The notes under the pieces are model-generated. The model saw nothing but the letters and a program-made list of their open reading frames with translations. It searched no databases and was not told where the DNA came from. This document shows, piece by piece, positions 36,701 through 37,170 of a DNA stretch of 64,000 bases; within the stretch, counting starts at the first letter, position 1; each line of letters opens with the position of its first letter. A program made the translations under genes and the position numbers. Source of the stretch: Camelus dromedarius (lineage: Eukaryota); assembly GCF_036321535.1 (NCBI RefSeq), contig NC_087436.1, positions 78,618,001 to 78,682,000 on the forward strand. Direction: 5' to 3'.

Positions 36701-37170
36701 AGGGGAGAGAAGAGAAGCGTGCGGTACCCGTCATCCTGCTGATTCTTGCTCGCGTTGATCTTGGACCCCTCTGCGAATTCCTCTATGTTGCTGTATTCGT
36801 TCATGTCCTCCATGGTGGCGGCGTTGTCGGCCGGGGGTTGCTGGCGCGCAGTTCGAGTCGCGGCAGCAGCGGCGGCGGAGCGTTGTATGGAGCTGGATTT
36901 AAAATGGCGGCGGAAGAGATCCGGGCGCCGCCTGCGCCCTCCCTTTATAGCCGCCCCGCCCGCCAATCGGGAGGGCTGCTGGGCGGTGACGTGGCGCTGG
37001 GCGCGCCGCGCCCCCTGCCGGGCGGCGCTGGGAGCGAGCGAAGGGAGGAGCGGGGCGAGCTGCCGCGGCGCCCGCGGCCGCCAATGGGAGAGGCTGCGGG
37101 AGGCTAAAGTAGCGGGAGCGGAGGGGAACAATGGCGGCGGCACATGGGAAAGCCGGGGCGGGACCTCCAT
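33639..37170 (-). CDS. HNRNPDL: Heterogeneous nuclear ribonucleoprotein D-like, complete spliced CDS: 37170-36728, 35942-35774, 35684-35523, 35062-34931, 34777-34663, 34195-34025, 33709-33639 (1263 nt, 420 aa)
   Basis: All introns are GT-AG. Exon lengths 443+169+162+132+115+171+71=1263 keep the frame. Translation gives [13 protein letters not shown]..., two RRMs (MFIGGL/RGFGFV; VFVGGL/RGFCFI), a Q-run/RGG, a Y/G-rich domain and C-terminal NNYQPY*. Confidence 0.98.
34025..34195 (-). CDS. HNRNPDL: HNRNPDL exon 6 (Tyr/Gly/Asn-rich prion-like domain; 171-nt in-frame cassette)
   Basis: [31 protein letters not shown]...GYADYS; donor GTG|GTAAGA. Confidence 0.97.
34663..34777 (-). CDS. HNRNPDL: HNRNPDL exon 5 (Q-run, RGG)
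   Basis: [50 protein letters not shown]; donor GAG|GTGAGA. Confidence 0.97.
34931..35062 (-). CDS. HNRNPDL: HNRNPDL exon 4 (RRM2)
   Basis: [35 protein letters not shown]...HQIGSGK; donor AAG|GTAAAG. Confidence 0.97.
35523..35684 (-). CDS. HNRNPDL: HNRNPDL exon 3 (end of RRM1, start of RRM2)
   Basis: [32 protein letters not shown]...YFGAFGE; donor GAG|GTGCGC. Confidence 0.97.
35774..35942 (-). CDS. HNRNPDL: HNRNPDL exon 2 (RRM1)
   Basis: TTTTTAG|TAAAATGTTT...; [16 protein letters not shown]...DAASVDK; donor AAG|GTACGA. Confidence 0.97.
36728..37170 (-). CDS. HNRNPDL: HNRNPDL coding exon 1 (Arg/Ala-rich N-terminus; internal Met120 at 36813)
   Basis: [13 protein letters not shown]...KNQQDDG; donor CGG|GTACCG at 36727. 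Confidence 0.96.
36901..37085 (-). promoter_or_regulatory. HNRNPDL: Internal core promoter for the short (Met120, 301-aa) HNRNPDL isoform, lying within coding exon 1
   Basis: CCAAT 37081-37085 and 36963-36967; TGACGTGG 36987-36994; GC box GGGGCGG; TATAAA 36949-36944; TCT-type initiator TCTCTTC 36919-36913; YY1 CCGCCATTTT 36910-36901. Confidence 0.7.

Follow-up and report, generated by a model that had tools for sequence, protein, structure and literature searches.

Start-site choice can give N-terminally shorter proteins, as in the yeast genes SUC2 and HTS1. One sequence can also be both regulatory DNA and codons, a situation described under the terms dual-use codons and overprinted reading frames. 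The human TCT initiator has the consensus YC+1TYTYY, and sites for NF-Y and CREB function in both orientations. In mouse NIH3T3 cells 71 footprint-supported starts lie 3′ of the annotated ATG (PMC4965872), and in these, as at the locus studied here, start choice decides an N-terminal segment and the promoter overlaps long-form codons. A review of ribosomal-protein TCT/YY1 promoters lists 7 human ribosomal-protein genes with a consensus TATA and describes TCT initiation in Drosophila as TRF2-dependent and TBP-independent (PMC8047918). Published entries for Hnrnpdl itself give the same base or cluster as reported below, flagged as lying in the coding sequence (CDS), as yielding an N-terminally shorter product and as TOP by sequence (PMC2441802, PMC4965872, PMC5308895). 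The start site is therefore already on record in three published supplementary tables and belongs to a known class rather than to a new kind of system. These entries are table rows, and the text examined of the three papers contains no discussion of the gene, its motifs or its evolutionary order.

We analysed a window of 64,000 nt from Camelus dromedarius (contig NC_087436.1, positions 78,618,001 to 78,682,000). Its minus strand carries HNRNPDL, since the 147-aa product of exon 1 is 100% identical to the C. dromedarius HNRNPDL protein, and the long ORF encoding the 420-aa isoform opens at 37170. The gene shares a CpG island with a head-to-head neighbour starting at 38337, which we take to be ENOPH1. 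An earlier note on this DNA had described a complete promoter in minus-strand order within the coding sequence. Every coordinate of its motif set proved correct on inspection of the sequence, as did the 31 nt between the TATA T and C+1 and the perfect Kozak context of Met120, the start of a shorter isoform, DL2, that lacks the first 119 aa. The strand of both CCAAT boxes and of TGACGTGG, however, had to be corrected (Table 1).

Table 1. Features of the HNRNPDL promoter region, in coordinates of the window
Feature	Position	Strand	Basis or remark
Distal CCAAT box, reversed relative to the gene, candidate NF-Y site	37081..37085	+	sequence
CRE-like site TGACGTGG, reversed relative to the gene, candidate	36987..36994	+	sequence
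Proximal CCAAT box, reversed relative to the gene, 18 nt 5′ of the TATA T, candidate NF-Y site	36963..36967	+	sequence
GC box, two overlapping GGGCGG	36951..36961	-	sequence
TATA box TATAAAG, codons 74-76, first T at 36949	36943..36949	-	sequence and shuffle test
TCT initiator TCTCTTC, mapped starts at equivalents of C 36918 and C 36916	36913..36919	-	sequence; human cDNA 5′ ends; mouse p1@Hnrpdl
YY1 consensus CCGCCATTTT, 3′ of the start, candidate site	36901..36910	-	sequence and shuffle test
Secondary A-start, 30 nt 3′ of the TCT start, equivalent of mouse p3@Hnrpdl	36886..36888	-	published position and sequence; context TCC/ATA in the window
Codons 1-119 of the 420-aa isoform, Arg/Pro/Ala-rich extension	36814..37170	-	translation; overlaps promoter and 5′ UTR of the short mRNA
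5′ UTR of the short mRNA, 105 nt, ATG-free, 7 pyrimidines first	36814..36918	-	counted from sequence
Met120, start of the 301-aa isoform, perfect Kozak context GCCGCCACCATGG, Met at 36813	36810..36822	-	sequence; DL2 lacks first 119 aa; mouse footprinting
Exon 1 end (36728) and splice donor	36722..36728	-	agrees with D-D-G/K junction in database proteins
Consensus donor GGGGAT/GTGAGT of a predicted upstream exon; splicing would remove promoter and Met1 as intron	37847..37858	-	sole GTRAGT on the minus strand in 36700-38300
ATG of the head-to-head neighbour gene	38337..38339	+	same CpG island as HNRNPDL; 1419 nt from 36918

The TCTCTTC at 36919-36913 matches YC+1TYTYY and places the C of CTCTTCC at 36918, 31 nt from the first T of the TATA box. 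The same heptamer is also present at 37245, 37229 and 36715, in each case with no TATA box. Because the motifs were picked post hoc, the following chance figures overstate significance: among 2000 dinucleotide shuffles of 36700-38300, a TATA box followed by a TCT motif at a spacing of 28-33 nt never occurred (0/2000) and CCAAT followed by TATA occurred once (1/2000), TATA alone gave P=0.01, YY1 P=0.022 and TGACG a marginal P=0.049, CCAAT alone was not enriched in the shuffles (3 seen vs 1.67 expected, P=0.23), and when synonymous codons were redrawn with the protein held fixed all six motifs were present in 2/200,000 uniform and 0/200,000 GC3-weighted draws. The canonical TATA box at -31 suggests the use of TBP rather than TRF2. 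Two further TCT-like pyrimidine runs lie on the minus strand at 37222-37245, 50-75 nt 5′ of Met1, and are candidate starts of a long mRNA.

Published 5′ ends map to the equivalents of 36918, 36916 and 36888 in human and mouse tables. Human oligo-capped cDNAs have the start contexts GGAT/CTCTTCC and ATCT/CTTCCGC, which correspond to 36918 and 36916; in the tables available, human HNRPDL is one of 1,645 TOP candidate genes, with mouse-TOP and known-TOP flags both 0, and has no match in the other table, probably a list of genes with one dominant start (Yamashita 2008, PMC2441802 file 3). In mouse, p1@Hnrpdl starts as CTCTTCC on the C equivalent to 36918, is typed TOP, overlaps the CDS and has 18,580 reads, whilst p3@Hnrpdl is an A-start 30 nt further 3′ with 4,187 reads; no other Hnrpdl promoter appears among the rows listed (Tamarkin-Ben-Harush 2017, PMC5308895 supplementary file 1). 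In NIH3T3 cells all 5′ ends of the gene (gene_percent 100) fall in one 36-nt cluster assigned to the CDS, which carries 5.9 ribosomes per RNA and has a footprint-supported start codon (Wang 2016, PMC4965872 file 6, by its columns Table EV5). The summit of this cluster holds 3,475/16,204 tags (PMC4965872), and the start is therefore a cluster rather than a single base. Capped ends 3′ of the annotated ATG, polysome loading and a supported downstream start codon are thus found together, which is what defines an in-CDS start with a shorter isoform. The A-start equivalent (36886-36888) has an initiator-like context, and the retrocopy-like model P0153 begins at the same codon (Ile95). In zebrafish, hnrpdl is listed as a dual-initiation promoter whose purine start is dominant (147 vs 17; PMC6954239).

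The earlier note had proposed that the short isoform has its own start near 36918 and had named capped 5′ ends there as the check. Such ends are present in the published human and mouse tables, so that the site had been predicted to the base, and the retrocopy-like models described below agree. What did not hold is its status as an additional promoter: with all NIH3T3 5′ ends inside the CDS, the published cap data make it the main promoter rather than a hidden extra, and its dominance in the cells measured is supported. We therefore regard it as very probable that the main HNRNPDL promoter is the one within the coding sequence, with a capped start on C 36918 in codon 85, that its mRNA would give the 301-aa protein from Met120, and that this promoter is older than the long frame. 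Judging from consensus sites, the start would likely be set by TBP on the TATA box, NF-Y on the reversed CCAAT boxes and YY1 immediately 3′ of the start. Human and mouse data show capped starts in codon 85 and translation from Met120, which would yield the dominant 301-aa protein. The 420-aa form would likely come from a rarer start 5′ of 37170, whose mRNA would be translated in frame through the promoter and the 5′ UTR of the short form. Gene models suggest a third route, by splicing from the donor at 37853, which may be what the splicing label of the literature denotes. That label is attached to the difference between DL1, the long form, and DL2 in the gene papers, which call DL2 predominant (PMC6996132, PMC9842712). 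DL1 is put 4-fold lower (PMC6996132), or at a quarter of DL2 and chiefly in brain and testis (PMC6996132 citing Akagi 2000), and in the literature consulted endogenous DL1 was below detection in one HeLa experiment. The words promoter and transcription start are absent from the text examined of PMC6996132, PMC9842712 and PMC5824352. For most transcripts the splicing label of the short isoform is likely wrong.

Compared with the known start-choice cases, HNRNPDL differs in that the downstream one of its starts dominates and is likely ancestral, and in that the optional segment is a disordered Arg-rich region promoting phase separation rather than a targeting peptide. Like the ribosomal-protein promoters reviewed in PMC8047918, it has a C+1 in a pyrimidine run, a GC box and a downstream YY1 consensus. 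Unlike them, it has a canonical TATAAA 31 nt 5′ of the start, a short pyrimidine run and a substantial A-start; zebrafish hnrpdl initiates mostly on purines, and HNRNPDL mRNA is not LARP1-dependent. With regard to dual-use codons, the older layer of HNRNPDL appears to be a whole core promoter with its 5′ UTR and the newer layer the protein.

Gene models that resemble retrocopies offer a separate view of the mRNA 5′ end. We fetched 294 proteins, and 166 passed a filter for likeness to residues 1-119: 128 begin at Met1, in 15 the start is ill-defined and 23 begin inside (residues 11-118). These 23 comprise 13 records (11 loci) beginning at residues 85-86, 5 beginning further 3′ and 5 parent-locus or truncated models; by a hand-set count, 11/16 loci with foreign flanks begin at codons 85-86. 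The 11 loci come from carnivores, a primate, rodents and ruminants, and in each the likeness begins at Leu85 or Phe86 after unrelated sequence. Most carry changes at otherwise invariant residues (beyond Met120, P0177 and P0251 are free of them), and the four copies in sea lion map to separate chromosome-length contigs. As the gene has no AG at codon 85-86, a fixed splice acceptor cannot account for the boundary. We infer that the 11 loci are retrocopies of mRNAs capped at 36918 or 36916. Four proteins from short-read contigs (P0073, P0291, P0292 and P0294) combine a long N-terminus with pseudogene-like changes; all of these changes lie beyond residue 84, and the four are therefore probably chimeras.

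A metagenome scan gave 0 matches, and conservation was assessed at the protein level, on 69 distinct therian N-termini from 120 records, after leaving out 9 records, namely five poor gene models (P0030, P0034, P0038, P0039 and P0040) and the four suspected chimeras. In codons 60-91, 10/32 columns are variable and there are no gaps, which resembles codons 120-146 (3/27 columns variable), whereas in codons 92-119 27/28 columns vary. Codons 68-71 (proximal CCAAT) and Ile75 and Lys76 (TATA) are invariant in 69/69 strings, as are codons 87-89 (YY1). The distal CCAAT is necessarily broken in 1/69 strings (pika, W30G), and the TGACG half-site could survive every substitution observed in the 69 strings. 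Of the promoter elements, the GC box shows the lowest conservation: it is broken in 3/69 strings, at codon 72, is hit by two of the four motif-breaking changes and varies in bird and snake models. Motif-breaking changes make up 4/45 of those observed vs 76/365 of those possible, a P of 0.02 that is indicative only because the 69 strings are related; 3 more changes need more than one base. Taken together, these data support promoter constraint on codons 60-91. The claim of the earlier note that such constraint shaped the N-terminal 119 aa thus survives for this core. From marsupials to placentals, conservation is also high over codons 1-28 (37086-37170), a stretch with no named motif that could explain it.

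The extension occurs in placentals and marsupials (P0243, P0247) and was not seen in the returned bird, reptile, amphibian and fish proteins. Most of the latter start at or near the Met120 equivalent, and the platypus model starts at Met120 itself. Five bird and snake records (finch, swan, duck, cobra and viper) have read-through extensions that match the promoter best, with E from 2e-13 to 1e-3 against 1.8 kb of the window, but not in the DL1 frame. A second frame gives the alignment for finch, swan, cobra and viper, and the third frame that for duck. The three bird models begin antisense in the neighbour's first exon, which confirms the locus. In finch, swan, cobra and viper the distances from CCAAT to TATA (6 codons) and from TATA to TCT (10 codons), as inferred from the protein models, are identical to those in the window. 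Equal motif spacing in other frames means that the promoter likely predates the therian 119-aa extension. The DNA pattern would then likely be common to amniotes, and the protein extension not. Thus the overlap claimed by the earlier note stands, but its order, a promoter written into coding sequence, is likely the reverse: the extension was likely written over an older promoter in the ancestor of marsupials and placentals. The TATA-TCT spacer (36920-36940, minus strand) is also similar in the finch and snake models (AQA.PG, other frame), which suggests a conserved unnamed element that we presume may be NRF1-like. One record labelled giant panda (P0074) has an N-terminus identical to that of garter snake P0229 and is probably a mislabelled or contaminant record.

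Going further, we think it likely, if less firmly so than the main promoter itself, that the Arg-rich disordered domain behind the phase separation of hnRNPDL-1 arose de novo in the ancestor of therians, when an amniote-wide promoter and 5′ UTR came to be read as protein. Its core residues would be the CCAAT, TATA, TCT and YY1 elements translated, start-site choice rather than splicing would switch the domain on and off, and variants in codons 60-91 that are classed as missense or silent would affect the promoter of the dominant isoform. HNRNPDL is a muscular-dystrophy gene (LGMD D3), and attributing its isoforms to start-site rather than splicing choice corrects their supposed origin. It is relevant to studies of isoform control, to the design of CRISPRi guides and reporters, and to the reading of variants in codons 60-91 of the 420-aa reference. 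If true, the overprinting would be a clear-cut case of promoter DNA turned into a functional disordered domain. The start site being known, this reading is a modest addition; it and the retrocopy evidence are the parts not found in print. Our literature search, judged from listings, returned no paper on the HNRNPDL promoter or the origin of the extension, and an account of two starts may already exist in Kamei 1999 and Akagi 2000.

Other explanations differ in how they treat the same observations. The 119-aa extension might have little function as protein, its frame being kept open largely by the constraint on GC-rich promoter DNA and the scarcity of stops there. The bird and snake models that read through the same promoter in other frames fit this, as do the highly variable codons 92-119, the lack of an upstream start in the NIH3T3 table and the undetected DL1 in HeLa cells. 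However, marsupials and placentals alike retain an intact frame, in which the indels, including some that lie outside triplet repeats, are in frame (in a search that favours intact copies), and DL1, reported at a quarter of DL2 and chiefly in brain and testis, shows distinct phase behaviour, so we consider it unlikely. A coding exon that came first and acquired its promoter later through codon choice would agree with synonymous choices that fit the motifs far beyond chance. It is very improbable given the motif spacing common to birds and snakes in other frames and the non-therian proteins, which begin at the equivalent of Met120 or have no such extension.

The gene papers imply that most DL2 is produced by alternative splicing, which with an upstream exon (donor 37853) would remove Met1. 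The donor is a consensus one, and joining it to 36931 generates an ATG and reproduces the start of the 341-aa hippo isoform P0041, whilst joining it to 36892 fits the treeshrew model P0050; one retrocopy-like model starts at Ile95, adjoining the 36892 acceptor. Against this, capped ends lie inside exon 1, retrocopies of an mRNA joined at 36931 would keep residues 81-84, which 0/11 loci have, and the Ile95 start coincides with the p3 start. We hold splicing as the main route to be quite improbable. The treeshrew model itself reaches Met120 from another frame, which may point to a frameshifted extension or to a misassembly. Leaky scanning past Met1, with one long mRNA giving both forms, could draw on the perfect Kozak context of Met120 and is hardly credible, as Met1 has a purine at -3 and a G at +4, an out-of-frame ATG at 37145 on the minus strand opens a 13-codon ORF, and the published cap data, with capped ends 3′ of Met1, contradict it.

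Compatible with an in-CDS main promoter, and doubtful though not far-fetched, is the idea that the short mRNA functions as a TOP mRNA, with repression through mTORC1, 4E-BP and LARP1. With a 5′ TOP defined as a cap-adjacent C followed by 4-14 pyrimidines, the sequence qualifies, as the pyrimidine run is 7 nt from 36918 (a C and six more pyrimidines) and 5 nt from 36916; it is among the genes retained by the Yamashita screen, and the mouse table also classes it as TOP. The run is short, however, and 1,645 genes pass the same screen. In favour of TOP control, p1 in the mouse table is less loaded than p3 at rest (log2 3.9/3.2 vs 5.0/4.9 in two replicates), and under glucose starvation the C-start p1 falls by 2.7/2.4 log2 and the A-start p3, which is not a TOP, by 2.9/3.6 (PMC5308895). 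In this one dataset the C-start is thus not hypersensitive to stress relative to the A-start. Moreover, in LARP1-knockout HeLa cells HNRNPDL is listed among non-TOPs, its mRNA level showing no LARP1-dependence (logFC -0.05, FDR 0.61, gene-level with all starts pooled), unlike the classical TOP mRNAs, which fall (PMC10871529). We found no mTOR-inhibitor data for the gene in the literature searched, and no match in the supplements examined of PMC11649897. The mTOR/LARP1 control that the earlier note had proposed is thus not supported by the data examined; although a short TOP by sequence, the 5′ end is probably weak or non-functional as such.

Lastly, HNRNPDL retrocopy-like sequence was also found fused into other gene models, a PP2C-like gene in sea lion (P0043) and an apparent nucleoporin-210-like protein in wild camel (P0049). 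The rodent retrocopy-like models P0047 and P0146 moreover lack most of the Gly/Tyr-rich exon 6 region, from which it appears that the shortest isoform likely shares the same start site.
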